64,000 nucleotides of DNA from a virus (IMGVR_UViG_3300009528_000013:1-64000), one strand, 5' to 3'. Positions 1,560 through 57,368 are shown, numbered from the stretch's first letter. Notes: a model not told the origin generated them from the sequence alone. Translations and numbers: made by a program.

Positions 1560-1991
1560 TTAGATTTGATAAACACAAACTTTAATTTTTTCATTCTCCG
1601 GTTTTTCAACTCTCCAACGATGAACTAACAAGGAAGAAATTTGTTGATCGCTTTTGTAAAAAAGCCCTTCAAGAGCATTCTGGATCAGCGTCGCCACGTG
1701 ATCTAAATCCGGGATTGGATTTCCATCCGGGTTCATGAAATTCTCATCGTAGGCTTCGAAGATATTTAGGAGTAGTTCGACTTCTTGATTTCTCGGGACG
1801 GTTTCGAAAGGACTCGAAACAATCTCGGAGATTTTTACCAAAAGACGTTCAGTGAAATTCTTACATTCTGCGGTTAAAATCATTTTCCTGCCGAACGGTT
1901 TCAACTTCCAAGAGACCGCCCGCATCGGAACCTCGAATTCGCAGATTCTTTTCAAAATGATCTCCCTTCTAAAATAATCCTTTTTGGCCAT
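1560..1991 (-). CDS. rusA: RusA-like Holliday junction resolvase
   Basis: PDLDHVATLIQNALEGLFYKSDQQISSL aligns with the RusA signature DLDNxxKxxxDAL...DDxQV; adjacent to helicase. Confidence 0.7.
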   Translation of the reverse strand: MAKKDYFRREIILKRICEFEVPMRAVSWKLKPFGRKMILTAECKNFTERLLVKISEIVSSPFETVPRNQEVELLLNIFEAYDENFMNPDGNPIPDLDHVATLIQNALEGLFYKSDQQISSLLVHRWRVEKPENEKIKVCVYQI

Positions 1992-4566
1992 CGGTGAGAA
2001 GGCGTTGAGGACGCAGAATAACGTCCGAAAATTTCTTCTTAGTTTTCAGAATTGATAAGACGTAAGTATCAATCGAATCCGGAACGACGAAATCGATAAT
2101 TGTGGTCTTCTTCGTTTGGCCGAGGCGATCTATCCTTCCTTCGCATTGATTCCGATCTCCCCAGGAGAAGTTGGATTCCAGGAAAATTGCGACACTCGCC
2201 GCCGTTAAATCAAGTCCAAGATTTACAGTCGAAATCTGTCCGAGAAAAAGCTGTGAAGTCGGATCATCTTGAAATCTCCTGATCTCCGCAGCACGTTTCT
2301 TTCGGACGGCACCGTAAACAACGGACGGATTTAGTTTCTTTTTTGTAGCCCATTCTTGTACTTTCCGTAACGTATGAAGAAATTGAACAAATACCAAAAT
2401 CTTTGTCTCAGTACCCAGTACTTCTCGCTCCATGTAATCGGTGAATGTTTTGAACTTCGATGTGCCGATCTCAGTAGTCACACCATCGCCATTCGTGATA
2501 AAGCCGCTGTTGATCTGATGCAATCGAAGAAGTTGCGTCAAGACATTGGTCGCAACGATTCTTTCGGTCGTGGATAATTGCATCAAGAAATTTTCCTTCA
2601 TCGAATAATACGCCGCGCTTTCGTCTGCGGAAAGCTTAACGGTTCGAGTTTGATAGGTTTTTGGAGGCAGATCAAACAGATCCTTTCGCGGAAAGGTGAT
2701 CCCGGCCGAATAAAGTCTCTTTCGGAAGTGTTCGATATTTCTCGGTCCGATGAAGGCTTTTCCATCATATCCACCGAGCGTTGCATACATTGCTTTGTAA
2801 TCTGCATATCTGGTTCCGAACACAGAAGCATCAAGGAATTTATATTGCGAAAATATGTCAAGGATATTATTTGGAGTCGGAAGCCCGGTCAGGATCAGTT
2901 TATAGGAAGTCCGAGCAAATGCCCGATAGAAAGCCCATGTGAGTTTTATCCCCGGATTTTTGATCTTGGTCGAATTGGAAACGATGATTCCATTTGCAAG
3001 AATATAATTATGGTTATCTTTGACTTCGAGATCATAAACCCGACCCAATCGCTTTTTTGGATTTTTGAGGGGCCGGAAATTCTCGTCTTTGCGGTTCAAT
3101 TTGATTTGCTCGATTGATGGAACTGTCATACTTTCAGTTATAGAAAACTTTCCCTCATAAGGAGTTTTGTAGTCCATACATCGCGGAATGTAAGGCCGGA
3201 TTAAATTGAAAAATCGAGTCTGTGAATCAGCACGAATCGAAATACAAAGTTGATCTTTCCGAACTTTCGATGAAATTGTTTGAATCCCAAATCTATCTCG
3301 AAGCCAAATCTGAAGTTTTCGAACCTCCTGTGGAGAAAAACCTTGAGTATGAAGTTGGACGCGGTACCAAGAATAGATTTTAACTATTCCATTCATCAAT
3401 AGCTGAGTTTTTTTGACTTTGACTCTAGATCCATCATCGAGATACCAGAACGCTAGCGAAACTTCATCGGCTTCATTGAGAAGTTCAATTGGAACTATTT
3501 TTTTTCCGTTTGGGTAAAATAATTTTCTCCAGCTTTTCGAAGTCTCGGTTGGACTTAGAAAAAAGTAATTAGAACGTCCCCAATCATTTTGAGCAGTAGT
3601 TGTCTGATTTGCGAAGACCTGAAACAATTTCCTTTTGAGATCGAAATATTCTTTTTGTTTTTCAGAATGAACAAACCAAATTTGACCTAGAGTTTTGTGA
3701 ATTGAAGCATCTCCTAACATACAGCCAATCAGAACCTTTCTCTGAAAATCGGAAAAATCCGGCATTGCTTTGTAAATCGAATCTCCGATTTGAAGCTTCT
3801 TTGCACTTCGAATCCCTCTGGAAGAAAAGAATTTATGCGAAGCAGTACAGATCACCGAATATGATTTTGATTTATTTCCGAAGTGTAGTTTCACGAAAGC
3901 ATGAAATCTGGGCTTTCGAAAAACTTTTTTTACTGTTTTCAATTCAACTTGTTCAGTTTGAAAATTAAAACTCCGAACAAGATTGCCTGGTTTCAGATTA
4001 GAGATCCGTTTACTACCATCCGAAGTCTGAACCAATGTATCTCCGCTCAGACATTCGTCTGCGATGACCATATCAAACCCTTTTGCCCGAAATCCTTTTT
4101 CATAAATTCTCACACTTTCGTAGTGACAGACCAATATCTCAGGCGGTTCTTTAACCGCAAGAAGGGAACCGATTTTCTCAAGTCGATTCCCCTCCATGAT
4201 TTCGAATTTTAGATCGCTGTGCTTCTCCAACTCGAATTCCCAGGTACTTAGAACAGACAGCGGACAAACAATCAAAGCCCTCTTAACTTGGCCCTGCTCG
4301 ATCCGATACCGAAGAATGTCGATTGCTGCTTTAGTTTTGCCGCTGCCGATCGGCAAGAGTAAAGCTGCGCAGTCTCGTTTCAAACCAAATTTGAACGTAG
4401 CCAATTGGTGAGCAAGCGGCTTCGTATGAAACCAAGATAGGGGGACTGGAAGCCCTCTCGCAAACTCATCGTACCGCAACTCCATCAGGGTCCCTTTGTG
4501 GGCCTTCTGGAAAAGAGAAAGCTGAGTCGGACTTCCTGGCTGATTTTGCATAGAGTGAATCGACAT
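1969..4566 (-). CDS. SNF2-family (SF2) helicase interrupted by a LAGLIDADG intein
   Basis: Walker A PIGSGKT, LIVCPLSV, Walker B IADE[intein]STKIKN, LILTGLP, motif V NLGLDL, motif VI QCEGRIDRLGQ. Confidence 0.92.
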   Translation of the reverse strand: MSIHSMQNQPGSPTQLSLFQKAHKGTLMELRYDEFARGLPVPLSWFHTKPLAHQLATFKFGLKRDCAALLLPIGSGKTKAAIDILRYRIEQGQVKRALIVCPLSVLSTWEFELEKHSDLKFEIMEGNRLEKIGSLLAVKEPPEILVCHYESVRIYEKGFRAKGFDMVIADECLSGDTLVQTSDGSKRISNLKPGNLVRSFNFQTEQVELKTVKKVFRKPRFHAFVKLHFGNKSKSYSVICTASHKFFSSRGIRSAKKLQIGDSIYKAMPDFSDFQRKVLIGCMLGDASIHKTLGQIWFVHSEKQKEYFDLKRKLFQVFANQTTTAQNDWGRSNYFFLSPTETSKSWRKLFYPNGKKIVPIELLNEADEVSLAFWYLDDGSRVKVKKTQLLMNGIVKIYSWYRVQLHTQGFSPQEVRKLQIWLRDRFGIQTISSKVRKDQLCISIRADSQTRFFNLIRPYIPRCMDYKTPYEGKFSITESMTVPSIEQIKLNRKDENFRPLKNPKKRLGRVYDLEVKDNHNYILANGIIVSNSTKIKNPGIKLTWAFYRAFARTSYKLILTGLPTPNNILDIFSQYKFLDASVFGTRYADYKAMYATLGGYDGKAFIGPRNIEHFRKRLYSAGITFPRKDLFDLPPKTYQTRTVKLSADESAAYYSMKENFLMQLSTTERIVATNVLTQLLRLHQINSGFITNGDGVTTEIGTSKFKTFTDYMEREVLGTETKILVFVQFLHTLRKVQEWATKKKLNPSVVYGAVRKKRAAEIRRFQDDPTSQLFLGQISTVNLGLDLTAASVAIFLESNFSWGDRNQCEGRIDRLGQTKKTTIIDFVVPDSIDTYVLSILKTKKKFSDVILRPQRLLTDGQKGLF
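2974..4053 (-). mobile_element. Intein (360 aa) with LAGLIDADG homing endonuclease
   Basis: Starts CLSGDTLV (Cys codon 4051-4053), ends VYDLEVKDNHNYILANGIIVSN followed by Ser +1; two motifs LIGCMLGDASI and LAFWYLDDGS; inserted in Walker B. Confidence 0.93.
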
Positions 4567-16767: not shown

Positions 16768-16942
16768 GCCAGCCGATTTCTATTCGATGGATCCGCTTCC
16801 AACCAAAAGCTACAGAATTACGGTTGAATCAAAAGAGTTTCAATCCTTGTTTTAATGGATAGGTATCTAAACCAGTCGAATCGTCGGTAACGACTGTGAT
16901 GTTGAGGTTTCAATCCTTGTTTTGATGGATCGGTTCCGATAG
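16768..16942 (-). CRISPR. Mini CRISPR array: 3 repeats (36 nt; middle one intact, outer ones half-degenerate) and 2 spacers (34 and 33 nt); no cas genes in window
   Basis: Minus-strand repeats: 16942-16907 CTATCGGAACCGATCCATCAAAACAAGGATTGAAAC; 16872-16837 GTTTAGATACCTATCCATTAAAACAAGGATTGAAAC; 16803-16768 GTTGGAAGCGGATCCATCGAATAGAAATCGGCTGGC (degenerate). ATTGAAAC 3' end and ATCC/GGAT stem are typical of type I/III repeats. Confidence 0.8.
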
Positions 16943-34850: not shown

Positions 34851-34892
34851 CGGTCTGTCACCTCCTCTCGTTGTCGTTCTGTTTCTGTTTCA

Positions 34893-34955
34893 TCTCGCTA
34901 ACAGAGCCGGTGGCGTGCGGCCCCGTTTTCATCGTTACCGAATCATCGGGCGAGA
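34893..34955 (-). ncRNA. Type I hammerhead ribozyme HHR-A (variant core CCGAUGA); predicted cut after UUA between 34899 and 34898
   Basis: Minus strand: UCUCGC CCGAUGA UUCG-GUAA-CGAU GAA AACGGGGCCG-CACGCCAC-CGGCUCUGUU A GCGAGA; stems I, II and III all pair. Confidence 0.82.
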
Positions 34956-34957
34956 AC

Positions 34958-35284
34958 TCAGACTACGTTCGGCCAACTCAGCAGTTGTTCCTCAGTCAGC
35001 TTCCCATAATACTCGGACTTCAGCAAGCGCCACTTCTTCTCTCCGTTCACCAGCCACTGAACCTCCAGGCGAAGCTTCTGCTTTCCAAACTTCATCCGAA
35101 GATTTCGCTTCCCAAGAGGCATCTCCTTCTTCAGATGACCCCAGCGATCTATTCGCCAGCCCTCAATAAGCGGATTTAGGAGCCACTCTTTAATCCGGTT
35201 CTTCTTGCGCTCGATCTTCAGGCTATGGTCCGTTCTCGGATGTCGGTTGACTTTCTCCATCCGGCGTATCATTTCCCTGTCCAT
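34958..35284 (-). CDS. hypothetical protein, family B paralog 1
   Basis: KEWLLN...DRWGHLKK...KFGKQ..RLE.QW...SEYYGKLTEEQLLSWPNVV. Confidence 0.7.
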   Translation of the reverse strand: MDREMIRRMEKVNRHPRTDHSLKIERKKNRIKEWLLNPLIEGWRIDRWGHLKKEMPLGKRNLRMKFGKQKLRLEVQWLVNGEKKWRLLKSEYYGKLTEEQLLSWPNVV

Positions 35285-35299
35285 CGGTCTGTTCACCTC

Positions 35300-35713
35300 C
35301 TATCTCGCCATACACTCCTTCACGTAGTCGTTGACCTCGATGATATCTACTTCTTCCCGACTGATCACGTACCCGATCCTCCCCTCCGCTTCCCGGCAAC
35401 ACTGCGACGCTGTGTGTGCCCGACCCCGAATCAAACTCCGCTTCGCCTCACAGATTCCCGCACAAGCAGAATCCAGAATGCGCTTGTTCTCTTTGCTGAG
35501 CATCGGTCTGTTCACCTCCTTCGCCGCCTTATAAGATTCTTTCCACAATTCGACTATCTCATACAACTCCCCATGCGTCAGACCAAACTGTTCACGGCAA
35601 GCAGAATACGCAAAAACCATATCGCTGCCCGCTGCCCGATCCAGAAAGTCCTGGGGTGTCTCACACTCTCTCGCCAGTCTCTGTAATCTCTGAAGCTCCG
35701 GTATCTGTTTCAT
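35300..35713 (-). CDS. hypothetical protein; C-terminal 67 aa (ATG 35503) is family A paralog 3
   Basis: Internal start-associated sequence AGGAGGTGAACAGACCGATG in frame. Confidence 0.6.
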   Translation of the reverse strand: MKQIPELQRLQRLARECETPQDFLDRAAGSDMVFAYSACREQFGLTHGELYEIVELWKESYKAAKEVNRPMLSKENKRILDSACAGICEAKRSLIRGRAHTASQCCREAEGRIGYVISREEVDIIEVNDYVKECMAR

Positions 35714-35731
35714 CTTGCCACCCTTTCAAAA

Positions 35732-35944
35732 CTACGGCCCGCATCCCTCCGCCCTGTCTGCACACCCGTTGCACTGATACCCCTGTTTCACATCCTTGAG
35801 CGTCAGAACATCCTCGTCCCCGCACGTCGGACAAGGATAGATACGAGGATTATCTGAGGTCGCAGCACGCAGCGCAGACCGTCCGTCCGGGTCGGCGAAG
35901 TCAATCGCAAACTCGTCTTCGTCTCTTTCTTCGTCGTAATACAC
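35732..35944 (-). CDS. small Zn-finger hypothetical protein
   Basis: GRSALRAAT..NPR.YPCPTC...GYQC..CAD. Confidence 0.65.
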   Translation of the reverse strand: MYYDEERDEDEFAIDFADPDGRSALRAATSDNPRIYPCPTCGDEDVLTLKDVKQGYQCNGCADRAEGCGP

Positions 35945-35984
35945 GGGCTTTCACCTCCTCTTTCTTTTTCTCTCGATTCCAGAT

Positions 35985-36524
35985 CTACTCATCGGATTCC
36001 GAATCATCACACTTCCAGAATCCGTAATCCGCCCCGTCTCCAGGACTCGCCCCGAAGTAATATCCCTCCGGAGCAATGGCGTCGAGCGCATCGAATAGAC
36101 CCCGAAGGACCCAACGCTTGCTCTCTTCGTTGCCTCCGGATTCCACTATTTCTACGAATTCTAACTCACGCCCTTCGGCCTCTTCAGGCTTTACTTCGGC
36201 AAGTGCCGCGATAAACTTCGGGATCAGATCGTCGGCGAGCATCGTTCCCTCGCTGACCGTTCCCCTAATGCTGGTCTCCGGCCTCTCGATCTCTTCGACC
36301 TCGTGCTTCTCTGCGAAGTCCAGTTCCCGAATGTTCACGGCGATCCTTTTGAGATCATTCATAGGTTTCTCCAGATCTGTCCGTACTTCTCTGAGACTCG
36401 GAAGCACTTGCTCAGCGACATCCAAGGAAACCGTCCTGCTCCGCATATCGAGTTCTTCGATCAGTTCTCCGATCCGCGACTTGGCGCTTCTCAGCGTCTG
36501 TATGGTGACGACCATAGGTATCAC
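35985..36524 (-). CDS. acidic hypothetical protein
   Basis: GTVSEGT..DDLIP.F...LFDALD..APEGYYFG..PGDGADYGFW pattern. Confidence 0.65.
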   Translation of the reverse strand: MIPMVVTIQTLRSAKSRIGELIEELDMRSRTVSLDVAEQVLPSLREVRTDLEKPMNDLKRIAVNIRELDFAEKHEVEEIERPETSIRGTVSEGTMLADDLIPKFIAALAEVKPEEAEGRELEFVEIVESGGNEESKRWVLRGLFDALDAIAPEGYYFGASPGDGADYGFWKCDDSESDE

Positions 36525-36616
36525 CTCCCTTCGATCTCGTTCTCTTCTTTCATCTCACGACCCAGGCCAGTGGCGTATGACCCAGGTTTCATCCTGTCGG
36601 AATCGTCAGGTGAGAT

Positions 36617-36907
36617 CTACTTAATGAACAACTGTTCTACTCCGTAGATTCCCCAGATCTCGTGCCGGTCGTCCTTAAAAGCCGTATGCCAGAGCAATCG
36701 GCCTCGGACTTTGATCAGCATCATAAACGATGTCCCGAGTCGAGCGGAACTGAAAACTGCGTCCACGTGAGTCCAACCGAGGATGTCGAAATCTCCGCTT
36801 TCGACATCTAATTGCTTGACATCGCTGACCGTAGCGATCTGAATCTGGCTGGCGATCTTCTTGTTCAGAGTCAAGACTTCGACCTTGATAATCTGTTCTC
36901 GCTTCAT
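36617..36907 (-). CDS. hypothetical protein
   Basis: 96 aa after start-associated sequence. Confidence 0.65.
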   Translation of the reverse strand: MKREQIIKVEVLTLNKKIASQIQIATVSDVKQLDVESGDFDILGWTHVDAVFSSARLGTSFMMLIKVRGRLLWHTAFKDDRHEIWGIYGVEQLFIK

Positions 36908-36949
36908 CGGTCTGTCACCTCCCCTCCTTCGGAATCTTCAGGCGAGACT

Positions 36950-37204
36950 TCAATACACCAGCGCTTCTGCAGCATACACCAAGTTCGCCAAGTCGAGCGC
37001 ATCCATCTGGAATTGATCAGCGACCCGGTTCATACGACGGATGAACCTTTCTGCCCGTTCCTGATTGATCGCATGGAACGAGACGAACGGAAGCTGGCCG
37101 CCGCCGAATCCTCTTTCTGGCCTACTCAGTCGGTGGTCGACCGACCTATCGGTTTTGTCGTGATCTCCGAGATGGCTCGTGAACGTCTTCAGTTCGATTG
37201 TCAT
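36950..37204 (-). CDS. hypothetical protein
   Basis: Start refined to MTIELK after start-associated sequence. Confidence 0.6.
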   Translation of the reverse strand: MTIELKTFTSHLGDHDKTDRSVDHRLSRPERGFGGGQLPFVSFHAINQERAERFIRRMNRVADQFQMDALDLANLVYAAEALVY

Positions 37205-37288
37205 CGGTTTGTTCACCACCTTTCTCTTGTTGTCCTATGCCTGTTTAACCTGTTTTCTCAGGAGACGGGCACGGGCCCGTCTGCACAC

Positions 37289-37603
37289 TCAGACAACGTT
37301 CGGCCAACTCAGAAGCTGCTCTTCGGTCAACTTCCCGTAGTACTCCGATCTGACCCGGTGCCATACTTTCTTGTCGGACTCCCACCACTGTTTCTCCAGA
37401 CGGACAACCTGCTTTCCAAACTTCAATCGGAATTTCCACCGTCCATCGTCGGTCGTCTTCTGAAGATGGCCGAAGCGATCTTCCGACCAGCCATTGGCAT
37501 TCAGTAGCCATTCCTTGACCAGCTTCTGTTTCCGCAACGCCAACTTTTTTCTGGGTGCCGTCGGTCGGTAAGGTTCCACTATGCGTATCAGGCCTCTGTC
37601 CAT
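37289..37603 (-). CDS. hypothetical protein, family B paralog 2
   Basis: Identical C-terminus SEYYGKLTEEQLLSWPNVV to 34958..35284. Confidence 0.7.
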   Translation of the reverse strand: MDRGLIRIVEPYRPTAPRKKLALRKQKLVKEWLLNANGWSEDRFGHLQKTTDDGRWKFRLKFGKQVVRLEKQWWESDKKVWHRVRSEYYGKLTEEQLLSWPNVV

Positions 37604-37638
37604 CGGTTCGCCTCCTCTCCGTTGACCGCCCTGAACGC

Positions 37639-37839
37639 TCACTCGACATTCAACTCTAACAAACCATCGACCTCTACCTTCAACTTAAACCGGAACCCGA
37701 GTTCGCCATCCTTGCGATCTATCGTGATCTTCTCAACTGCTCTATCAAGATCACCGAACTCTTCTTCGACCGCCTCGATTGCTTTGGATAACTCCTCGGT
37801 CAGACGATGTGCGAAAAAAATGCTCTTCTCTTTTGTCAC
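37639..37839 (-). CDS. hypothetical protein
   Basis: 66 aa, GGAGGTGA RBS. Confidence 0.55.
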   Translation of the reverse strand: MTKEKSIFFAHRLTEELSKAIEAVEEEFGDLDRAVEKITIDRKDGELGFRFKLKVEVDGLLELNVE

Positions 37840-37845
37840 CCGCCT

Positions 37846-38136
37846 TCACCTCCCTTCTGCCGATCGCCTCATTCGGTCAATCATCTCGACGTTTTTGTCC
37901 CGGAGATATTCGGAGATTTTTCTCCGAGCAACGTCAAGCTCATCCTGAGCATCTCGCAACGAAGCCAGCGCCTTGTATGAGAAGTCTCCCCTAAACCACT
38001 GTCGAGCATCGAGGACGTGACCGATCGCCTCCCGCATACTCCTGTCAACGGGCGTACCCCCCTCCACAGATTTCGCCATAGACTTTGCCATAGACTTTGC
38101 CATAGACTTTGCCATAGACTTTGCCATAGACTTCAC
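37846..38136 (-). CDS. hypothetical protein with N-terminal MAKS repeats
   Basis: GGAGGTGA RBS; 12-bp tandem repeat encodes (MAKS)x5. Confidence 0.6.
   Translation of the reverse strand: MKSMAKSMAKSMAKSMAKSMAKSVEGGTPVDRSMREAIGHVLDARQWFRGDFSYKALASLRDAQDELDVARRKISEYLRDKNVEMIDRMRRSAEGR
38069..38133 (+). repeat. 12-bp tandem repeat GACTTTGCCATA x~5
   Basis: Directly visible. Confidence 0.95.
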
Positions 38137-38169
38137 CTCCCTTCGGTCTGTTGTAACTTACAACGTTTT

Positions 38170-38870
38170 TCATGGGAGTCATGAACAGACCTAAACCCCT
38201 ATGAAAATACTGTGATGTGGATCCGATTTTGAAAACGTAACTTCCGAAAGATCACACCAGAAAGACAAACGCCGAAAGTCTGACCTGTTTCCACTAACCC
38301 CTTGACCCAGAATGTCCTGAACGATTTTCAAGCCCCTCCGAAGAGAAGAAAGAAAGACCGAAAATCCGGATCCTTATCGCATTGATTCTATTGAAGTTAA
38401 GTGCGTTTATGACTCCCACTTTTCTGCCCTTTCAATACTTAGGTTCCAAGAACCCGGACCCTTATCACATTGTTTTTTAAGGCGCTTAGGTGCAGTTATG
38501 ACTCCCACCAAAACTGTCGTAAGTCGAAAAAGGGCGGTTTTTTCGACCCCTCATCGCATTGTTTTTTAAGGAGCTTAGGTGCAGTTATGACTCCCATTTA
38601 TTTACACACACAGCACCCCCCTCTCTCTAAGTTTTTACTTTTCCCCCCTCTGTCAAAAAAACAAGTACTTGGTTCCTTGTTACCCCCTTCTCAGACCCCA
38701 GACCCATAGAATAGTACTAGCTCAGAAATAGTCTATCCGTAGATAATATCTTTCTATATCAGTACGCTTAGTGTACTATATGTTATGTGTGTTCCTATAT
38801 GTGTGTGTATGTTTATGACTCCCATAAATACACTTAACTCCTTTATTTACAATGCGATAAGGGTTCGGCT
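38170..38870. repeat. Iteron-like repeat region, putative replication origin
   Basis: Three 47-48 bp direct repeats at 38372, 38460 and 38549 (CCTYATCRCATTG...TTATGACTCCCA); further TTATGACTCCCA at 38813; inverted copies at 38173 and 38820-38862; AT-rich tract 38700-38830; no long ORF. Confidence 0.6.
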
Positions 38871-39143
38871 TTTCCTGGGGGATTGTGCCTAACTTGTTGT
38901 TTTCCTTGACATTACGGAAGAAAGTCGGCAACCGAATCGGAGAGAATCGGAGAGCACCACTCGGTCGATTACCAGATTCTGGTCTCTCAAACCCCCTGGG
39001 ATTCTCTTGAACAGCGTCCTCCGATCTGAGAAGACGGTTCTCTCCCCTATGTTTTCTTTTCTAAGCCCTTTTCTTGTGTTTGAAAGCCCCCCCCAAAGGG
39101 AAAAAGGGTCCCCAATCTGTTAGAAATCTATTGGTTCTCTTGC

Positions 39144-39209
39144 ATCTCACGACCCTGGCCAGTGGAGTTTGGCCGTGGGTTTCGTCCTATTGGACTCATC
39201 GGGCGAGAC
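39144..39209 (-). ncRNA. Type I hammerhead ribozyme HHR-B (variant core CCGAUGA); predicted cut after GUC between 39151 and 39150
   Basis: Minus strand: GUCUCGC CCGAUGA GUCC-AAUA-GGAC GAA ACCC-AC-GGCCA-AACUCCAC-UGGCC-A-GGGU C GUGAGAU; canonical stem II and GUC triplet. Confidence 0.88.
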
Positions 39210-39373
39210 TACGGCAAGCTTGCTCGGATATGAAGTCTCGATTCAGCTTCTTCGGTTGCCCGTCTCAGTCTGTCTAAGCCAACCTCCCTTCGCCGATCAT
39301 CGGTAAGCTTTTGCCTCATCCTGTAGACGCCGTGCAGGCGCCGGTCGAGTTCCGAAGAGCTCATCTCGATCAT
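39209..39373 (-). CDS. small hypothetical protein (54 aa)
   Basis: Manual translation MIEMSSSELDRR...IRASLP with AAGGAG RBS; stop codon abuts HHR-B. Confidence 0.5.
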   Translation of the reverse strand: MIEMSSSELDRRLHGVYRMRQKLTDDRRREVGLDRLRRATEEAESRLHIRASLP

Positions 39374-39490
39374 CTCCTTATGGCAATCTGGGTTGAATTT
39401 TCAGCGCCGCTCGGATCCTGAGTACCCGGCGTACACGCTTCAGACGCTTTCGCTGTGCAATCTTTTCTTTCACGGACATCGCCTCTCCTT

Positions 39491-39685
39491 TCACAGAACG
39501 TTCAGATGCGCAACGAAGCAACTGAACCCACCCCGTACTTCCTGAAGCTTCAACTGGAGCTCGTCCAGATACGCCGTCTCCCTCTTCTCGACAATCTTCT
39601 CCTGTTGTTCGTCGATCTCTGCGACCGACTTTGTAATCGCGGCTACGTCGTGGTACATCAGTTCGACCGATTGTTCTATTGTCAT
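39491..39685 (-). CDS. small coiled-coil hypothetical protein
   Basis: 64 aa, GGGGGGTGA RBS. Confidence 0.55.
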   Translation of the reverse strand: MTIEQSVELMYHDVAAITKSVAEIDEQQEKIVEKRETAYLDELQLKLQEVRGGFSCFVAHLNVL

Positions 39686-39765
39686 CTAATCACCCCCCGC
39701 TCCTTCTGTCTCCTTTTATTCTTCGACGGTTCTGACTATTGCCTGGTATTCCCTCCTACCTCGGA

Positions 39766-39951
39766 CTATGATTTCTGTCCGATGGCTTTTGCCTGTTTGC
39801 GTGTGGCGTAGATCCCCTCCTCTTTTCCGTTGACATATAATCGGATTCGAGAATTGAGGGACTTCCCCAGGGATACTATTTTGTACTTGTTTCCCTGGGA
39901 GTTTATCCATGCCCCTATGAAAAGTTCACGATTCTCAGTCTGCTTTGCCAT
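39766..39951 (-). CDS. small hypothetical protein
   Basis: 61 aa, GGAG RBS. Confidence 0.5.
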   Translation of the reverse strand: MAKQTENRELFIGAWINSQGNKYKIVSLGKSLNSRIRLYVNGKEEGIYATRKQAKAIGQKS

Positions 39952-39975
39952 CGTTCTCCATTCTCCATTCTCCTT

Positions 39976-40437
39976 TCACTCTTCGACGGTCCCGGTCACT
40001 GTCCCCTTTGCACCGCACTTCGGGCAGGGGTCGAGCTCGAACGATTTGTAGATCCATCCGCACTCCAGGCACTCGATCATCATCCTCGCCTTCAGACCGC
40101 CACGGGACCGGCAGTATCGGGTTGCACCGAGACGTTCTCTTTCTTCCTGGAACGTATATCCGTGTCCGGTGTGGGGATTTGCGATATGGATGATCTCGTG
40201 TTTCAGGACTTCTCCGAGCTCGTGATTCCAACCGAACTCGTCGAAGTAATGTCCTGAGATGGTCAGCAAGAAGCGGTCGTCTTTCCGAAACCATCGAACT
40301 TTCGCCGCCACTCTTCTCAGTCGCTCCGAGATCTGAATCTCTACATTTCCCACTTTCAGGTAGGGGTAGCACTCATCCCGAACATCTGAAAGCATCTCCC
40401 AGATCTCATCGGGCGTCGGTCGTTTTCTGAACGGCAT
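39976..40437 (-). CDS. SprT-like zinc metalloprotease with C-terminal Zn ribbon
   Basis: VLKHEIIH (HExxH), GHG..F, CLECG...CPKCG; start refined to MPFRK. Confidence 0.85.
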   Translation of the reverse strand: MPFRKRPTPDEIWEMLSDVRDECYPYLKVGNVEIQISERLRRVAAKVRWFRKDDRFLLTISGHYFDEFGWNHELGEVLKHEIIHIANPHTGHGYTFQEERERLGATRYCRSRGGLKARMMIECLECGWIYKSFELDPCPKCGAKGTVTGTVEE

Positions 40438-40478
40438 TGGTCTATTCACCACCTTTCATTTGCTATTGTGATCTGTTA

Positions 40479-40541
40479 TCTCGCTAACGGAGTCGGTGGA
40501 GTACGACCCCATTTTCATCCTTTTGGAATCATCGGGCGAGA
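40479..40541 (-). ncRNA. Type I hammerhead ribozyme HHR-C (variant core CCGAUGA); predicted cut after UUA between 40485 and 40484
   Basis: Minus strand: UCUCGC CCGAUGA UUCC-AAAA-GGAU GAA AAUGGGGUCG-UACUCCAC-CGACUCCGUU A GCGAGA; compensatory changes versus HHR-A in stems II and III. Confidence 0.82.
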
Positions 40542-40729
40542 ATGATCTGTCGGTGTGCTTCGATCAGTTCGAGTCCGGCGACCGCTTCCTTCGCTACTAT
40601 CATTGCCGATCGGTACACATCTTTCTCCGGATCAGCAATGCCCTCTTTGGCATAATTGGCCCCCTCCTGAAGACGCTCGATTGCTTCGATCAGAAGAAGT
40701 TTATCCGATTTTTCCATTTCGCTCACCAC
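40529..40729 (-). CDS. small helical hypothetical protein
   Basis: 66 aa; its TGA stop is the UGA of the HHR-C core. Confidence 0.6.
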   Translation of the reverse strand: MVSEMEKSDKLLLIEAIERLQEGANYAKEGIADPEKDVYRSAMIVAKEAVAGLELIEAHRQIILAR

Positions 40730-51764: not shown

Positions 51765-52887
51765 AATCGAGAAGATCAAGGACATTTCGGACTACGATCC
51801 AGATGGAACAAAAGACTGGGCGGCATTGAAGCCAGACGGAACAAAAGACTGGGCGGCATTGAAGGATGATGCCCGGATTTGTGCGGGATGGTACGCCACA
51901 TTCTTGGACCCGGACAAAGAGATCAAGTTCAGTGAGGTGGAGATTGTCGCTGTCGCCGTCAAGGTTTACAAGGAGATTGCGCGGTGTAAGAAGCTCGATC
52001 CAGAAGAATATAAGTATACCGTGAATCCCGATGAGATGAAATCGGCGGCGAAGAAGCTCTGGGAGAGGGTAGCGAAGGAACTGAGTAAGACTGAGATCGA
52101 GATTCTACTCAAGGAGGCCGAAGAGAATGCCAAAGTCGATAAGGAACAAGGAAAAGGTCAGAAAGAGACAACGGAAGAAGAAGAGAAGGACGATGAGTAC
52201 GCTGAAGTGAAGCCATCGGGCGATAAGAAGGGACGAGAGGTCACCGTTGAGGAAGTCCTGGAAAAGTTCGAATCGTTCCTATTGAGGAAGCCGTTTCTCT
52301 ATTTGGTCGGTGGTCTGGCTAACAATGGCAAAACAACCGGAGACATCGATATTTTGGTCAAAGCGGAAGAGGATTTACCGGACTCGTTCAGGATCCCATT
52401 GGAGTTTAGAATCTATCGGATGTTTGCACCGGAGGATCGACCTCGCGTCCATATTTTATATGATCTCTATCAGGGTCCGTTCACTACGCACTACGAGTTA
52501 GCGGATTTGAAAGTCGATAATCACGAGGAATTTGTTCGGGTCGAAATGAGTAGAGATTTGGAAGAGGAGAAGGAGGACAAAGACGGAGTTCTCTCGGAGA
52601 TTGAGAAGAGTCTGGGCGAAGAAGGGTTTCCAGAAGAGTTTGTGGAGAAGGCGCGATTTCATTTGGAAATTCAAAAAGCCGAGTTTGGATTGGCCGGGAA
52701 AGAGGGCGTGGCCGCGAATCGTGAAGCGAAACAATCGATGCGTCAAGACCGGGTTGTGATGAATAGAAGATTCTATCCGCAGAAGACCTCAGTTTCGGCG
52801 ATGATGGCATATCGAGTCCAGGAGACGTATTCGGTTTCACAGACGTTGGATTACTTGCAGAAATTATATGAACGAGGAATTCGATGA
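51736..52887 (+). CDS. multi-domain head-module protein with Pol-beta/MNT-type nucleotidyltransferase domain; C-terminus resembles a ligase N-terminal segment
   Basis: YLVGGLANNGKTTGDIDILV (GG...DxD); 33-bp duplication at 51799-51864; C-terminal RFYPQK. Confidence 0.7.
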   Translation: MRNMQNLNLEIEKIKDISDYDPDGTKDWAALKPDGTKDWAALKDDARICAGWYATFLDPDKEIKFSEVEIVAVAVKVYKEIARCKKLDPEEYKYTVNPDEMKSAAKKLWERVAKELSKTEIEILLKEAEENAKVDKEQGKGQKETTEEEEKDDEYAEVKPSGDKKGREVTVEEVLEKFESFLLRKPFLYLVGGLANNGKTTGDIDILVKAEEDLPDSFRIPLEFRIYRMFAPEDRPRVHILYDLYQGPFTTHYELADLKVDNHEEFVRVEMSRDLEEEKEDKDGVLSEIEKSLGEEGFPEEFVEKARFHLEIQKAEFGLAGKEGVAANREAKQSMRQDRVVMNRRFYPQKTSVSAMMAYRVQETYSVSQTLDYLQKLYERGIR

Positions 52888-54305
52888 ATTTTGAAAAGGA
52901 CGAAGATTTTGTGCTCAAGTCCGGAGCGATCCCGCAAGTAGCGATCGAGAAGAAGTACGATGGGATCGTCCTGGTGACTTTTTGTTCTGGGGACAAAGTT
53001 AAGATCTTTACGGACAGCGGCAAGTGGGTTGAGAGCAGTCTTCCGGATCTTGTCGACGAGGTTCCAAAAATAAGGGACCGCGTTAAGAATTTCTGTTTGA
53101 TTGGAGAAATGGAATACTGGGTTGGTGGAAAGCATCGTCCCAGAGAAGAGATGGCGGCGCTCCTGCATAAAAAGGAAGTCATCACCAGGAAGACGATTAC
53201 CTATAATGTCTTTGACTGTCTATATTACGACCGGGACATCCATAAGCTCACGAAGAGAGAGCGCCGGGAATTCTTGGAGAAATTCGCGTTTCCGCAATCG
53301 ACGATGGGCGTACCAAGTGAAAGTTTGATTCTCAATCTGACGCCTTCGCTGTATTGTGAGACGCTGAAAGAAGCCGAGTCTGCCCTCCAGAAGTGTCTGA
53401 AGGCCCCTGGTTCAGAAGGCGCGATGATCAAACTTCTCGATACCGCTAGCTCGGGATATAGTATGTCAGGCATGACTTCTGGGGTCTTCAAGCAGAAAAA
53501 GTTCGCCGAAGTTCACTGTCTTGTCGGTCAGGTAAATTCGACGAAGGTTGGGCCGGACACTTTCAATTACGAATTGTATTTGCGATTCCGGCCGTCGGAT
53601 AAGGTTGATCCGAAACGGGTGAAGGAAATCAAAGGCAAGGAATACGTCTACGTCGGACGTAGTTACAATACCAACATCAAGGCTCAGATCGGAACGGTTT
53701 TGACGATGAAGTTTCATACTATGAATTTGTACCACGACGATGAATCAGGTTTCAATCGCCTTCATTTATATGAGCCGATAGTCGTTGAAATTTGGGTTGA
53801 AAAAAAGGAGCCGGATTATTTTTCGATTGCAATTAAGATCGGTCAGACTGTCAATTTGTTAATCGAGAAAGCTTTCACGAAGGCGATGGATTTGTTGTGG
53901 AGAGTGCCCCCCGAAGAAATGAAAAACTGGGTCCCCGGCTATCGCCGGAGCGCAGAATTCGATAGTGGTGTTCTTAAAATGGAGACTGTGCCGGATGAGC
54001 TACGCAAAGGGCGATTTGTCTGGTTTGTCACCGATGAGCCCGAGATAGATGTTGAAAAAATGAATAAGCAACTTAGCATTGAGAAGATGAAGCACCCCTT
54101 TCCGAAGCTCACCAACAAAAAGGTCTCCGATCTTGAGGAGGGCGAGGGTACGTATCCGCGAAAAGGTGGAAGATTACGGGGCGTTAGCGTCGGCAGAGAT
54201 GAGGATGGGTACTACGTTTTCACACATCGGTCGCGATCGAAATCGTATCCTTCTGTGAAAGATATTCCCGATAGGGTGGTTCAGCAGGTCGAATCCACTG
54301 GTTAA
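52884..54305 (+). CDS. ATP-dependent DNA ligase-like protein
   Basis: Motif I EKKYDG, III LIGEME, IIIa YNVFDCLY, RERREFL, IV EGAMIK, V KQKK, OB-like C-terminus. Confidence 0.85.
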   Translation: MNFEKDEDFVLKSGAIPQVAIEKKYDGIVLVTFCSGDKVKIFTDSGKWVESSLPDLVDEVPKIRDRVKNFCLIGEMEYWVGGKHRPREEMAALLHKKEVITRKTITYNVFDCLYYDRDIHKLTKRERREFLEKFAFPQSTMGVPSESLILNLTPSLYCETLKEAESALQKCLKAPGSEGAMIKLLDTASSGYSMSGMTSGVFKQKKFAEVHCLVGQVNSTKVGPDTFNYELYLRFRPSDKVDPKRVKEIKGKEYVYVGRSYNTNIKAQIGTVLTMKFHTMNLYHDDESGFNRLHLYEPIVVEIWVEKKEPDYFSIAIKIGQTVNLLIEKAFTKAMDLLWRVPPEEMKNWVPGYRRSAEFDSGVLKMETVPDELRKGRFVWFVTDEPEIDVEKMNKQLSIEKMKHPFPKLTNKKVSDLEEGEGTYPRKGGRLRGVSVGRDEDGYYVFTHRSRSKSYPSVKDIPDRVVQQVESTG

Positions 54306-54314
54306 GGAGAAGAG

Positions 54315-57300
54315 ATGGGGAGAGTCAAATATCGAGCCAAAATTCTGAAAATCGAGGGGGACAATGTTCACTTCTCCATTCCAACTGAAGTTTTCGCACG
54401 GACAATTCCCGACTTCGAAGGTTTCGATCTAGCTGACCCCTTAACGCTGAAGGCCGATTTTCTTGACATCGAGAAGATATTCTATTTGGGAAGCAAGGGG
54501 AGACTAAAGAATCAATTTGCGAAATTGGTTCCGGAGGATGTCAAAACAATTTTCGATCCAATGTGTGGGACTGCTCTGTTTTTAGCGGAGATGGCGAAGC
54601 AAGGAAAGAGGATCATTGCAAACGATTACTCGACGGCGCCTTTTTATACCGCCCGGGCGATGTTTTTGAAAAATAAGCCGAACGAAGAAGAGTTCAAAGC
54701 ATTTCTTAAATCTGTAAATGAAGTCGAGGGGTACTATTTTCAAAATGCAAAAAAACTCTTTCCAATCCTGGCTGGTAGGAAGCATGCTCAGAAGTTTATA
54801 GATGGATATATCCTTCGGGCGAGGGAGGCGAAGTTTGGACATTACTATCTTGGAGTGTTGTCTGCCTGCCTCTTGAATTGGTTTGGGTCGTTTGGCGGAC
54901 CGTATCGAAAATGGAGTTTTGCAGAATTCAAATCCAAGCTCGGATTTTACGCGAAGCAACTACGTTCTTTCGAAATCGAGGGGACAGTTACCAATTTAGA
55001 CGCCTTGACGATGGAGATTCCCTCGGTCGATATGATTTACTTCGATCCACCGTACTCGGAAAAACTGTTCAAGTACATCACAAAGTTTGGAAAGTTGAAT
55101 GCGATTCTACTTCAGAAGGATTGGGATAAGAAAGAAGTTACCCAGGATCAGGTACAGGCGCTTGCTGAAAAGTTGGCCGGGCATTGCAAATATCTCTTTG
55201 TTTCGACTAGTCCCGCCTGTCCGATCAAATGGAAAGCGCTTTTTGAAAGAACGAAGCGCCAGGCCAGTCAGAAACGCTTCGCTCTGACTGGTTCCGGAGC
55301 AATCGCAGCCAGCTTACCATCAGCACAGCAGAACAAAAGAAGAATGTCGGAGATCCTCTGGGTCTCCGTTCGGAAGTCGGAGGGAGAGGAACAAGAAAAA
55401 GCAGAGATTGAAAAAGCGAAAGCCGATCCCTTTAGCGTTTACCCCGACGAGAGCGGGGACTACAGTTATATGATGCACACTCACGCGAGAGGGCGATCGG
55501 TCCACGCGGATTTGCGAATTCAAAGCCTGGGAAAGGAGTTCTTGGTCGGATGGACCCTAATGATTCAAAGAGAAGGTGCGATCAAAGAACCGATTCTCTC
55601 GATGGGCGATTTGAGAAAGATCAATGCCGATTCTACGAAATACTACAAAATCAATTTGCAGACGGGCGAGTGGGCGGAGAGAGAGAAGAAAAGTACGAAA
55701 CCAGGAACGACAGTTCGAGTCGAATTGGTTGCGACTCGCAAATCTCCGGAACCGAAAAGTTGGATGACATTTGAAGGTGTCGTTAAACCAGGAGTCCTCG
55801 GAGCGACGAAGGAATTTCCCGGGGTATTTGTTATTGTCGATCGGGGGAAGGCGGAGTACCTTTCGCAAAAGCCGTGGCTCCACGAATATTTTTTTGATGG
55901 GAAGGTTCTTAAGAAGGGACGATTCTTTTTCCGTCAGCTTCGAGCCTGGAAGACGAAAAAATCTGATGATGAGCCCGATCAACAGGAGATTCTCGGCAGC
56001 GAAGTGTTGTGGAATCACATAGCGGATCTGAACAGCCGGGCTTTTGCAGTTTTGAAGGGTGAGGGAATGACCGATGAGGAGATCCGGCAATGGATCGAAC
56101 CGCAATTGATTGAGGTCATGAAAGAAATGGGTCTGCCCGCGGAATCGGAAGTTTCAGTCGATGATCCGATGGATAGGGGACTGAAAGAAGAAGATATTCT
56201 GAAAGCTTTCGTCATTCCGCCCGGCAAGGAAGAAGGTCTGGGTCCAGAGCTCGGGTGGCTTTGTATCAATCCCGACGATCAGATTCCTTACGTCCTTTCG
56301 AACCGAGCCATCGAGCAGGGTTTCCTTCCACCGCCGACCATTAGTGCGCTTCCGAAGCATTGGAGAAAACACGTTAAGACGGAAGAAGAGTATTGGACGG
56401 TGAAGGATAAGCCGAAGGCATTCGAAATGCGAAAGGTTTTGGTCAAAAGATGGAAAGAGGAAGGGATCCTGAGTAAAGCTCAGAAGGGGGACCGGGATCC
56501 TTTTGGGAAATCTGTCGAGAAGGAAGCGCCGGTCGAGGTTCTCTGGGTCGGGTCGAGAAGAGACGAATGGGAAGCAATCGAGAAAGCTCGTCATCGCCAT
56601 GACACGTGTATGGAATGCTCTCATAAGCCGGTACTCGAGATTATCTGGGCAAATGGTCACGGGCACGCTTGGTTCTGCTGGCCTTGCTTTGTGAAGTGGC
56701 TTGGGAAGGAGACCAATCCGTGGTCCGGAAAAGGCGATGACGTTGATTATGTGAAGCTCGTCAAAGACGGCGAGGCAGCGAAAAAATTTGCCGACAATCG
56801 GAATCCGAACATTAAAGAGCAACTGGCGGAGTATTTTGCGAGTGAAGAGATCAAAGGTGCTGCTAAAGAGTTTGAAGTTTTTCTTGAACGACTTAAATCC
56901 GAGAAGGATTCCAAACCCGAGTCTGTCGGAGTTTCGAAAGCTGCCGTGACCGAATTTCGATTCACGTATCAGTTTTGGAAGGGTCCGAAGGTTGTCCGGG
57001 AGGGTCCGACACGTGAAAGATTCTTGCTCTGGATCAAAACCGGAGAAAAGTACTTGATTTTTAAGCTGAATGATAATATATTAGAGGCTGACGAGACTGG
57101 CGGAATGATTCGGGAAGATAATTGGGGCAATGAAGAGTACCGGAAGACTGGCTATGTCAAGCCCGGGACTCCCCTGAATCCGACGACGGATACTCCATCG
57201 TTCATTCGACTTTTGGGTTCTGGGAAAGCGATTATGCTGATCGACAAGCCTGAGTTGAAAAAGATTCAGTTTAAGGGCAAGAAACTGAAAGGAGTGTTTC

Positions 57301-57368
57301 TCTTTAAGCGTGCGGAGGATCATTGGTACGTCGAGAGAACGCCAGCAGAGCCTGGCGGTGAGACTTGA
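54315..57368 (+). CDS. polyprotein: N6-adenine DNA methyltransferase + LigD-type 3'-phosphoesterase + Zn finger + degenerate second phosphoesterase-like domain
   Basis: YLGSK, DPMCGT, IANDYS, YFDPPY (Dam/D12-like); MHTHARGRSVHADLR...FEGVVKPG...IVDRG (PE); CMEC...CWPC; second PE-like fold from 56940. Confidence 0.75.
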   Translation: MGRVKYRAKILKIEGDNVHFSIPTEVFARTIPDFEGFDLADPLTLKADFLDIEKIFYLGSKGRLKNQFAKLVPEDVKTIFDPMCGTALFLAEMAKQGKRIIANDYSTAPFYTARAMFLKNKPNEEEFKAFLKSVNEVEGYYFQNAKKLFPILAGRKHAQKFIDGYILRAREAKFGHYYLGVLSACLLNWFGSFGGPYRKWSFAEFKSKLGFYAKQLRSFEIEGTVTNLDALTMEIPSVDMIYFDPPYSEKLFKYITKFGKLNAILLQKDWDKKEVTQDQVQALAEKLAGHCKYLFVSTSPACPIKWKALFERTKRQASQKRFALTGSGAIAASLPSAQQNKRRMSEILWVSVRKSEGEEQEKAEIEKAKADPFSVYPDESGDYSYMMHTHARGRSVHADLRIQSLGKEFLVGWTLMIQREGAIKEPILSMGDLRKINADSTKYYKINLQTGEWAEREKKSTKPGTTVRVELVATRKSPEPKSWMTFEGVVKPGVLGATKEFPGVFVIVDRGKAEYLSQKPWLHEYFFDGKVLKKGRFFFRQLRAWKTKKSDDEPDQQEILGSEVLWNHIADLNSRAFAVLKGEGMTDEEIRQWIEPQLIEVMKEMGLPAESEVSVDDPMDRGLKEEDILKAFVIPPGKEEGLGPELGWLCINPDDQIPYVLSNRAIEQGFLPPPTISALPKHWRKHVKTEEEYWTVKDKPKAFEMRKVLVKRWKEEGILSKAQKGDRDPFGKSVEKEAPVEVLWVGSRRDEWEAIEKARHRHDTCMECSHKPVLEIIWANGHGHAWFCWPCFVKWLGKETNPWSGKGDDVDYVKLVKDGEAAKKFADNRNPNIKEQLAEYFASEEIKGAAKEFEVFLERLKSEKDSKPESVGVSKAAVTEFRFTYQFWKGPKVVREGPTRERFLLWIKTGEKYLIFKLNDNILEADETGGMIREDNWGNEEYRKTGYVKPGTPLNPTTDTPSFIRLLGSGKAIMLIDKPELKKIQFKGKKLKGVFLFKRAEDHWYVERTPAEPGGET

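Follow-up and report, generated by a model that had tools for sequence, protein, structure and literature searches.

The window analysed here, 64,000 nucleotides of DNA from an uncultured phage of 118 kb, carries several related elements of about 66 nt next to stop codons on its minus strand. The earlier note had described three of them, at 34893-34955, 39144-39209 and 40479-40541, and all three (A, B and C) were present there with the sequences claimed. A covariance model was built from A, B and C and then used to find further copies, which revealed one more complete copy (D) and a shortened remnant (E), so that the count of three has to be replaced by four copies and a remnant. The complete type I hammerhead architecture ascribed to A, B and C was found as well, namely a stem I of 6-7 bp whose 5' and return strands enclose, in this order, the core CCGAUGA, the hairpin of stem II, GAAA, the hairpin of stem III and U-H, and the predicted cut positions agree with those given before (Table 1).

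Table 1. Hammerhead elements of the window and the leaders that would follow their cuts
Feature	Position	Strand	Core	10.1/11.1	Cut site	Predicted cut between	Score and remarks
Hammerhead A, type I	34891..34956	(-)	C4	U.U	UUA	34899 and 34898	90.3 bits to covariance model R1
Hammerhead B, type I	39143..39210	(-)	C4	G-C	GUC	39151 and 39150	83.1 bits
Hammerhead C, type I	40477..40542	(-)	C4	U.U	UUA	40485 and 40484	92.4 bits to R1
Hammerhead D, type I	36551..36616	(-)	CUGACGA (canonical)	U.U	GUC	36559 and 36558	71.4 bits, E about 1e-17
Remnant E	36895..36948	(-)	CUGAAGA				20 bits, E 0.003; stem I 5' strand, core and stem II kept
Leader after cut at C	40438..40484	(-)					47 nt, purine-rich, predicted 5'-OH start; ends at ATG 40437 of SprT-like gene
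Leader after cut at D	36516..36558	(-)					43 nt; ends at ATG 36515
Leader after cut at A	34851..34898	(-)					48 nt; ends at ATG 34850

In E the retained parts run straight into a ribosome-binding site and ATG 36907. GAAA, stem III and the cut site have been deleted, and E is incapable of cleaving. Stem III of the copies is long, with 10 bp and a conserved 8-nt loop. B has a mosaic-like appearance, its 5' half resembling A and C and its 3' half resembling D.

Position of the elements among the genes

The spacing between stop codon and element is 0-3 nt in each copy, and the stop codon adjoins stem I in all five elements, E included. Stem I of B abuts TAG 39211-39209, stem I of A begins 2 nt after TGA 34960-34958, and the nearest ORF upstream of C, of 66 aa with a GTG start and itself doubtful, ends in the core's own UGA. 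The leaders of A and C, from the predicted cut to the next ATG, have the lengths of 48 and 47 nt reported earlier. The gene downstream of C gave a Pfam SprT-like match (E 6.5e-07), the leader of E is nearly identical to the leader following A, and what comes after B is not a gene but a non-coding stretch of about 750 nt, rich in repeats.

The segments between the predicted cuts measure 1334, 2592 and 1660 nt. Hence the proposed unit of ~4.25 kb is divided by D into the latter two, the earlier sizes being wrong because four copies and a remnant are present rather than three. The designation of the region as an early operon and first-expressed transcript was an assumption, on which the promoter and terminator scans were uninformative: between 33.0 and 43.2 kb, sigma-70 promoters and intrinsic terminators were no more numerous than in shuffles. 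Pairing of loop III with the downstream ribosome-binding site was also considered by eye and dropped, as it involved 3-5 complementary bases at most and was inconsistent among the copies.

Fold, covariation and comparison with Rfam

The minimum-energy fold was a three-way junction in B and C and nearly so in A, and minimum-energy folds together with the descriptor placed three helices in the correct order at one junction in all four copies. Fold z-scores of A, B and C ranged from -2.7 to -3.1 on the minus strand vs -1.3 to -1.9 on the plus strand. Across the four copies 93.8% of cells were paired, and the hammerhead structure outscored every slid register and every shuffle. As had been claimed, the copies differ by compensatory changes, with six base pairs altered on both sides, and contain G-U wobbles that pair on the minus strand alone; these eight G-U cells make the fold strand-specific. 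One difference within stem I is an A-U pair in D at the position where A and C have G-C.

The unpaired core bases were fixed among the four copies, while loop II was variable. D and E carry the full consensus of the core strand C3-U4-G5-A6-N7-G8-A9, and A, B and C have C4 instead. G12-A13-A14 and the A15.1-U16.1 pair were invariant in all four copies, and base 17 at the cut site was never G (adenine in A and C, cytosine in B and D). At 10.1-11.1 a Watson-Crick pair was found in B only, the other three copies having U.U. In a sample of viral contigs, 37 of the 104 occurrences of this stem II come after a hammerhead core. A strict descriptor (C-Y-GANGA, stem II ≥3 bp, GAAA, stem III ≥3 bp, U-H, stem I ≥5 bp) matched the 64-kb window exactly four times, at A, B, C and D, all on the minus (coding) strand, whereas the mean over 300 dinucleotide shuffles was 0.03 matches, with never more than one. 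As regards a tertiary contact between the regions of stems I and II, which fast cutting requires, stem I can be extended past an internal loop in all four copies, with a different pairing sequence in each, although these helices are short enough to arise by chance.

At gathering thresholds, Rfam detected only CRISPR repeats and no ribozyme, both in the window and elsewhere in the phage, and no copy reached the gathering score of RF00163, RF00008, RF02275 or RF03152. The best scores were those of B to HH9 (16.1 bits, threshold 52) and D to type I (13.1 bits, threshold 34). The Rfam/Infernal check proposed in the earlier note thus left all copies below threshold, but D did align end to end with Hammerhead_1 (RF00163) at 13 bits, with every core base matched. 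The type III relatives described below gave E values of 1e-6 to 1e-2 against Hammerhead_3 (RF00008), and canonical ones among them likewise fell under the threshold (30-44 bits vs 48.5). Because the curated thresholds also miss these canonical relatives, the silence of Rfam on the phage copies is uninformative. With the families of clan CL00010 (RF00163, RF00008) the copies share the three-way junction, the core C3-N4-G5-A6-N7-G8-A9, G12-A13-A14, A15.1-U16.1 and a cut-site base other than G; they differ in the C4 of A, B and C, the U.U at 10.1/11.1 of A, C and D, and the long stem III.

A type III lineage and the C4 core variant

The 29-nt 5' half of the elements recurs at 27 loci in metagenomes and 14 in genomes. 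With few exceptions these loci form good type III hammerheads, in which stem-loop I consists of the same two strands as stem I in the window, and by this sequence comparison the window elements represent a circularly permuted form of a type III hammerhead lineage that is widespread. The type III relatives are rich in compensatory variation, their stems varying freely around a fixed core. Fold, core, covariation and homology to this large lineage all concur that the copies are genuine hammerhead-type RNAs, for which cleavage is predicted. We therefore regard A, B, C and D as probably four paralogous type I hammerhead self-cleaving ribozymes, and E as one dead remnant.

Twelve of the 14 genome contigs matched by the scan come from Patescibacteria (CPR) assemblies. 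In the type III arrays of these bacteria the stem I strands, the core, stem II and the junction-proximal bases of stem III are identical to those of the window copies, and UUA and GUC cut-site subtypes, several copies per locus and C4 variants occur as well. However, stem I is there closed by a loop of 3-6 nt and stem III is open, whereas in the window stem I is open and stem III capped; at locus L364 the arrays moreover border short non-coding repeats and not genes. The apparent concentration of the lineage in Patescibacteria hints at the host of the phage. As the phage's CRISPR repeat was absent from 301 sampled Patescibacteria genomes, the idea of a CPR host has the hammerhead lineage as its one source.

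The proposed search of related phages for the motif yielded no relative, either by blastn of 7.5 kb against INPHARED or by three protein-seeded scans of IMG/VR (SprT-like protein, 176-aa protein and portal protein). A scan with the conserved stem III loop returned 42 loci and no homologue, and this loop appears private to the phage. The matches of a first, loose pattern scan were due to chance (best fetched contig 17.7 bits, E 0.16). The sole entry in the sequencing-run listing for the phage was a subsurface metagenome, its probable source sample, with no RNA run.

In A and C, the C4 found in three of the four full copies is combined with the U.U mismatch at 10.1/11.1. Natural hammerheads with this mismatch are on record, and when introduced by mutation it gave more cleavage activity than any other mispair there (PMC3088659). 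U4 hardly ever varies in other hammerheads; C4 is a rare, documented natural variant, and U4C is described as reducing hammerhead activity considerably in vitro (PMC3088659). A natural U4C hammerhead of a viroid is described, in the paper that cites it, as slow in vitro and sufficient in vivo (Ambros and Flores 1998, cited in PMC3088659); it has the same substitution in a type III ribozyme of a plant RNA replicon, whereas here the variant is fixed in three type I paralogues of a DNA phage. Since three of four copies carry a change reported to lower activity in vitro, constitutive fast cutting is not to be assumed. D should be a normal, fast cutter, and the U4C copies A, B and C probably cut more slowly or in a condition-dependent manner.

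Otherwise well-formed C4 variants were present in unrelated contigs (L208/L289, L290, L272, L346, L347, L353, L359 and L367), and C4 recurs in at least four other independent hammerheads. A and C diverged by compensatory changes yet retain C4, so the fold remained under selection after the U4C change. Covariation of C4 with the loop I sequence GCGU in the relatives was rejected because the U4 members L368 and L372 share the loop; their association probably reflects shared descent.

Proposed RNA processing and its alternatives

Starting from the observed sequence, fold, covariation, placement and homology, we infer cleavage, its rate and every downstream effect as follows. The elements would be transcribed within a long minus-strand message, and each folded three-way junction would cut itself after H17. 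The ribozyme would stay intact on the upstream fragment, forming a structured 3' terminus that bears a 2',3'-cyclic phosphate, and the downstream fragment would have a 5'-OH on 6-7 nt of the former stem I strand, followed by a short unstructured leader. Cutting would thereby divide the polycistronic RNA into 1.3-, 2.6- and 1.7-kb pieces, which could then differ in stability and translation. The statement that 5'-OH RNAs escape 5'-monophosphate-dependent decay does not settle their fate, as any protection by a 5'-OH end depends on the host: the cleaved product of the glmS ribozyme is degraded by cellular RNases (PMC6765202).

Such protein-free segmentation of mRNA is an already published, unproven hypothesis for phage loci with multiple hammerheads. 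In prophages, multiple hammerheads flank genes and cut during transcription in vitro, and cutting of polycistronic phage RNA or formation of circles was proposed for them (Perreault et al. 2011, PMC3088659); the same work had reported the U10.1-U11.1 mismatch and the U4C variant. As in those prophages, several intergenic hammerheads lie here on one strand and flank single genes or short gene blocks, with the same proposed role. The phage and host are different, all window copies are paralogues belonging to a single lineage, a core variant is common to three of these copies, and each copy adjoins a stop codon. The locus therefore supplies fresh examples of an arrangement known in phages since 2011, with a few unusual details, and is fairly ordinary.

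It is rather unlikely, in our estimate, that the copies are mostly dead relics, of which at most D cuts while A, B and C persist as inactivated repeats forming stable intergenic hairpins, for instance as 3' stabilisers or as neutral repeats. The reported strongly impairing effect of U4C in vitro in three of the four copies, the additional U.U mismatch in A and C and the low Rfam scores would fit such decay, and E shows it under way and demonstrates that a junction can lose its ribozyme. Against this, every copy retains the remaining unpaired core bases despite drift in loop II, A and C, both with C4, differ by compensatory changes that indicate a maintained fold, and C4 recurs in independent well-formed hammerheads and works in vivo in the viroid variant. 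A somewhat less likely possibility is that the C4 copies are slow by design and act as conditional switches: the ribosome terminating on the upstream ORF would cover the 5' strand of stem I, and cleavage would follow the state of translation or ions and so tune the ratio of joined to separated messages. The stop codon next to stem I in all five elements and the presence of one fast-type and three slow-type cores on one predicted transcript agree with this, as does the suggestion of Perreault et al. that slower phage variants may be regulated (PMC3088659). The switch is nevertheless pure inference, stop adjacency may simply reflect the tight packing of phage genes, and the ORF upstream of C is the doubtful one noted above.

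We consider it very improbable that the segments become circles. Stem I strands would be interchangeable between copies, segment ends would re-pair as a nicked hammerhead, and reverse ligation or an RtcB-type ligase of the host would circularise coding messages of 1.3-2.6 kb or link segments in a different order. The type I copies of the window resemble a type III hammerhead in which loop I is replaced by whole genes, which is the geometry such a reading requires. RNA between two cuts would have a 5' strand and a 3' ribozyme able to re-pair, the geometry used for ligation in viroid and retrozyme circular RNAs, but those are 0.2-1 kb non-coding replicons or retroelement RNAs of eukaryotes and not putative phage messages. 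Circles were sought in multi-hammerhead phage loci and not found (PMC3088659; PMC6765202), and no RtcB was found in the phage. Still less probable is an explanation at the DNA level, by which shared boundary sequences promote recombination and the exchange of gene cassettes, the RNA fold being incidental. The composite halves of B, the deletion joint in E with the leader of A, and the behaviour of hammerhead, leader and ribosome-binding site as a repeated module speak for it. However, the G-U pairs function on one strand only, the compensatory changes keep pairing and not sequence, conservation is highest at the single-stranded catalytic bases, and the lineage elsewhere shows free stem variation around a fixed core.

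The general picture of the hammerhead is unchanged by this locus, and the lineage to which it belongs points to a large set of ribozymes unreported at curated Rfam thresholds. The role of genomic hammerheads in bacteria and phages is an open question (PMC6765202). The locus is a compact natural test set for it, with one canonical, three U4C and one deleted copy of a single lineage on one predicted transcript. Cleavage and fragment fate here would tell whether U4C represents a defect that is tolerated or a means of tuning, and whether cutting alters the expression of flanking genes.

Hammerhead copies in the phage

On the minus strand, the sequences of A, B and C matched their description in the earlier note. 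Each comprises a stem I of 6-7 bp, the core strand C-C-G-A-U-G-A, a stem II of 3-4 bp with a tetraloop, and G-A-A-A, followed in the 3' part by the stem III hairpin, U plus a base other than G, and the strand that closes stem I. The sequence also bears out the predicted cuts (34899/34898 in A, 39151/39150 in B and 40485/40484 in C) and the leader lengths of 48 nt (A) and 47 nt (C).

A covariance model made from A, B and C (R1) was scanned against the entire 117,770-bp virus record, and gave five matches, all on the minus strand and all within the A-C region. The three elements first counted are real, but the further full copy D and the truncated remnant E had been overlooked. One stem I pair differs by copy, being A-U in D, G-C in A and C, and G-U in B, and the leader of D is 43 nt long. 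In E, the stem I strand, the canonical core strand and stem II are retained and joined directly to a ribosome-binding site and ATG, while nothing remains of GAAA, stem III and the cut site; its leader is almost the same as that downstream of A. Owing to D, the proposed segments of 1.33 and 4.25 kb are wrong, the predicted pieces being 1334, 2592 and 1660 nt. The distance between stop codon and stem I is 0-3 nt in all five elements.

No gene directly follows B. Instead there is ~750 nt of non-coding DNA, with no convincing ORF, that contains three tandem 89-bp repeats and a partial fourth, the latter corresponding to the conserved 19-nt end of the unit. It may serve as a regulatory region or an origin, or encode an array of non-coding RNAs.

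Features of the phage record (window positions unless stated otherwise)
Feature	Position	Strand	Remarks
Hammerhead A	34893-34955	minus
Hammerhead B	39144-39209	minus
Hammerhead C	40479-40541	minus
Hammerhead D	36551-36616	minus	R1 71 bits; core C-U-G-A-C-G-A fully canonical; GUC site
Remnant E	36895-36948	minus	R1 20 bits
Stem III loops	about 34911-34918, 36571-36578, 39164-39171, 40496-40503
89-bp repeats past B	38372-38600; partial fourth 38813-38831
RlaP protein, 331 aa	10178-11173	minus	Pfam RlaP, E 1.4e-11
SNF2-type helicase gene	1969-4566	minus	intein-interrupted; LAGLIDADG homing endonuclease
ATP-dependent DNA ligase, then 1017-aa protein	52884-57368	plus	D12-class adenine methyltransferase domain in the latter
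Lone CRISPR-DR7-type repeat	16837-16873	minus	Rfam
Two-repeat, one-spacer mini-array	about 84310-84419 of the whole record (L292:410-519)		elsewhere in phage

Fold, covariation and C at position 4

The thermodynamic fold gave the three-way junction in B and C, and nearly so in A. Fold z-scores of A-C were lower on the minus strand (-2.7 to -3.1) than on the plus strand (-1.3 to -1.9). When both strands of the window were scanned with an otherwise strict hammerhead descriptor permitting C or U at position 4, exactly four sites were obtained, namely A, B, C and D, while 300 dinucleotide shuffles gave a mean of 0.03 matches. Pairing statistics were taken from a model-guided alignment of these four copies: 93.8% of the cells were paired, both sides had changed in six pairs, and G-U occurred in eight cells. 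The paired share fell to 34-49% in every slid register. The unpaired catalytic bases were constant except at positions 4 and 7, and loop II was unlike in each copy. A-D and the remnant E are real hammerhead-family elements.

With 15-20 nt of flank, stem I could be extended past an internal loop in all four copies by a pairing sequence that differs each time, a modelled extension that may weakly fit the extended natural hammerhead form. It should be further pointed out that stem III is capped by an 8-nt loop almost constant in the four copies, while the closing pairs covary. No homologue with the same loop was found in the IMG/VR scan, and no pairing partner was identified.

The U4C substitution is rare, yet not restricted to the studied phage. 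C4 was seen in otherwise well-formed hammerheads of viral contigs (L208/L289, L290 and L272) and also in L346, L347, L353, L359 and L367. According to Perreault et al. (PMC3088659), in vitro activity drops considerably with U4C but is enough in vivo for a viroid. The same authors note that natural hammerheads can have U.U at 10.1/11.1, a mispair that allows more cleavage than any other there when introduced by mutation (PMC3088659). Because A and C diverged by compensatory changes with C4 kept in both, their sequences argue that the fold remained under selection after the substitution.

Precedent and predicted RNA ends

In prophages, multiple hammerheads flank single genes or short gene blocks and cleave during in vitro transcription, and they were proposed to convert long phage transcripts into gene-length messages; spliced or circular products were considered, and none was detected by the authors (PMC3088659). 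The mRNA segmentation suggested in the earlier note is therefore a standing published hypothesis rather than a new one. What hammerheads do in bacteria and phages was still counted as an unsettled question in a review of 2019 (PMC6765202). The arrangement of A-E is already known, and its function is putative.

The ribozymes most likely fold soon after the polymerase has passed and cut after base 17. Because they are of type I, nearly the whole ribozyme would be left on the upstream fragment, as a stable 3' structure with a cyclic phosphate end. The downstream message would have a 5'-OH at its start, and a short leader rich in purines would precede a strong ribosome-binding site. Whether the 5'-OH stabilises or destabilises the RNA depends on host RNases, and the glmS ribozyme product is degraded after cleavage (PMC6765202). 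Since every one of the five elements has its stop codon so close, the stem I strand would be covered by a terminating ribosome, which could couple cutting to translation. RtcB was not found in the phage, and a look-up of sequencing runs listed no RNA run with this sequence. An RlaP-family nucleotidyltransferase is encoded, the family being linked to RNA repair, and the genes next to it were seen to include neither a ligase nor a kinase as partner.

Relatives and Rfam placement

DNA and protein searches found no related phage. In a sample of viral contigs, the stem II sequence common to C and D (U.U at its base) directly followed a hammerhead core strand in 37 of 104 distinct occurrences, and many of the contigs with this stem II carry several hammerheads each. 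A motif scan with the 29-nt 5' half (stem I strand, core and stem II) recovered 27 metagenome and 14 genome loci, nearly all being well-formed type III hammerheads. Their stem-loop I is built from the same two strands as the open stem I of A-D, the junction-adjacent stem III bases agree, and the UUA and GUC cut-site subtypes are both present. From these shared features we infer that A-D are circular permutations of the type III lineage, with stem I opened and stem III capped by a hairpin.

Patescibacteria (CPR) assemblies account for 12 of the 14 genome hits (L363-L376), and no paper linking hammerheads with CPR was found in the literature searched. One Parcubacteria contig (L364) carries nine type III hammerheads within 4 kb, and compensatory changes are plentiful in their stems I and II. 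They lie on one strand (L364:2300-6700) at 135-440 nt spacing with no ORFs between. Interspersed with them is another repeat, a structured motif of ~90 nt in which compensatory changes occur as well. The arrangement resembles an array of small RNAs processed by ribozymes. As for the phage itself, its CRISPR repeat was not found in 301 sampled Patescibacteria genomes. Its DNA ligase and D12-class methyltransferase genes share an arm with the portal gene.

Rfam reported no ribozyme at gathering thresholds. Under permissive settings, B gave 16 bits against HH9, and D gave 13 bits against the type I model in an end-to-end alignment with all core bases matched, its score being lowered by the length of stem III and by U.U. 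Canonical relatives, whose scores of 30-44 bits stay under the 48.5 threshold, go likewise unreported, so the silence of Rfam on A-D is not informative; the lineage scores under the threshold throughout L363-L376. It is noteworthy that curated thresholds are blind to this entire hammerhead lineage, that U4C is fixed in three paralogues beside one canonical copy (D), and that the phage elements are type I permutations of a type III lineage found chiefly in CPR genomes.
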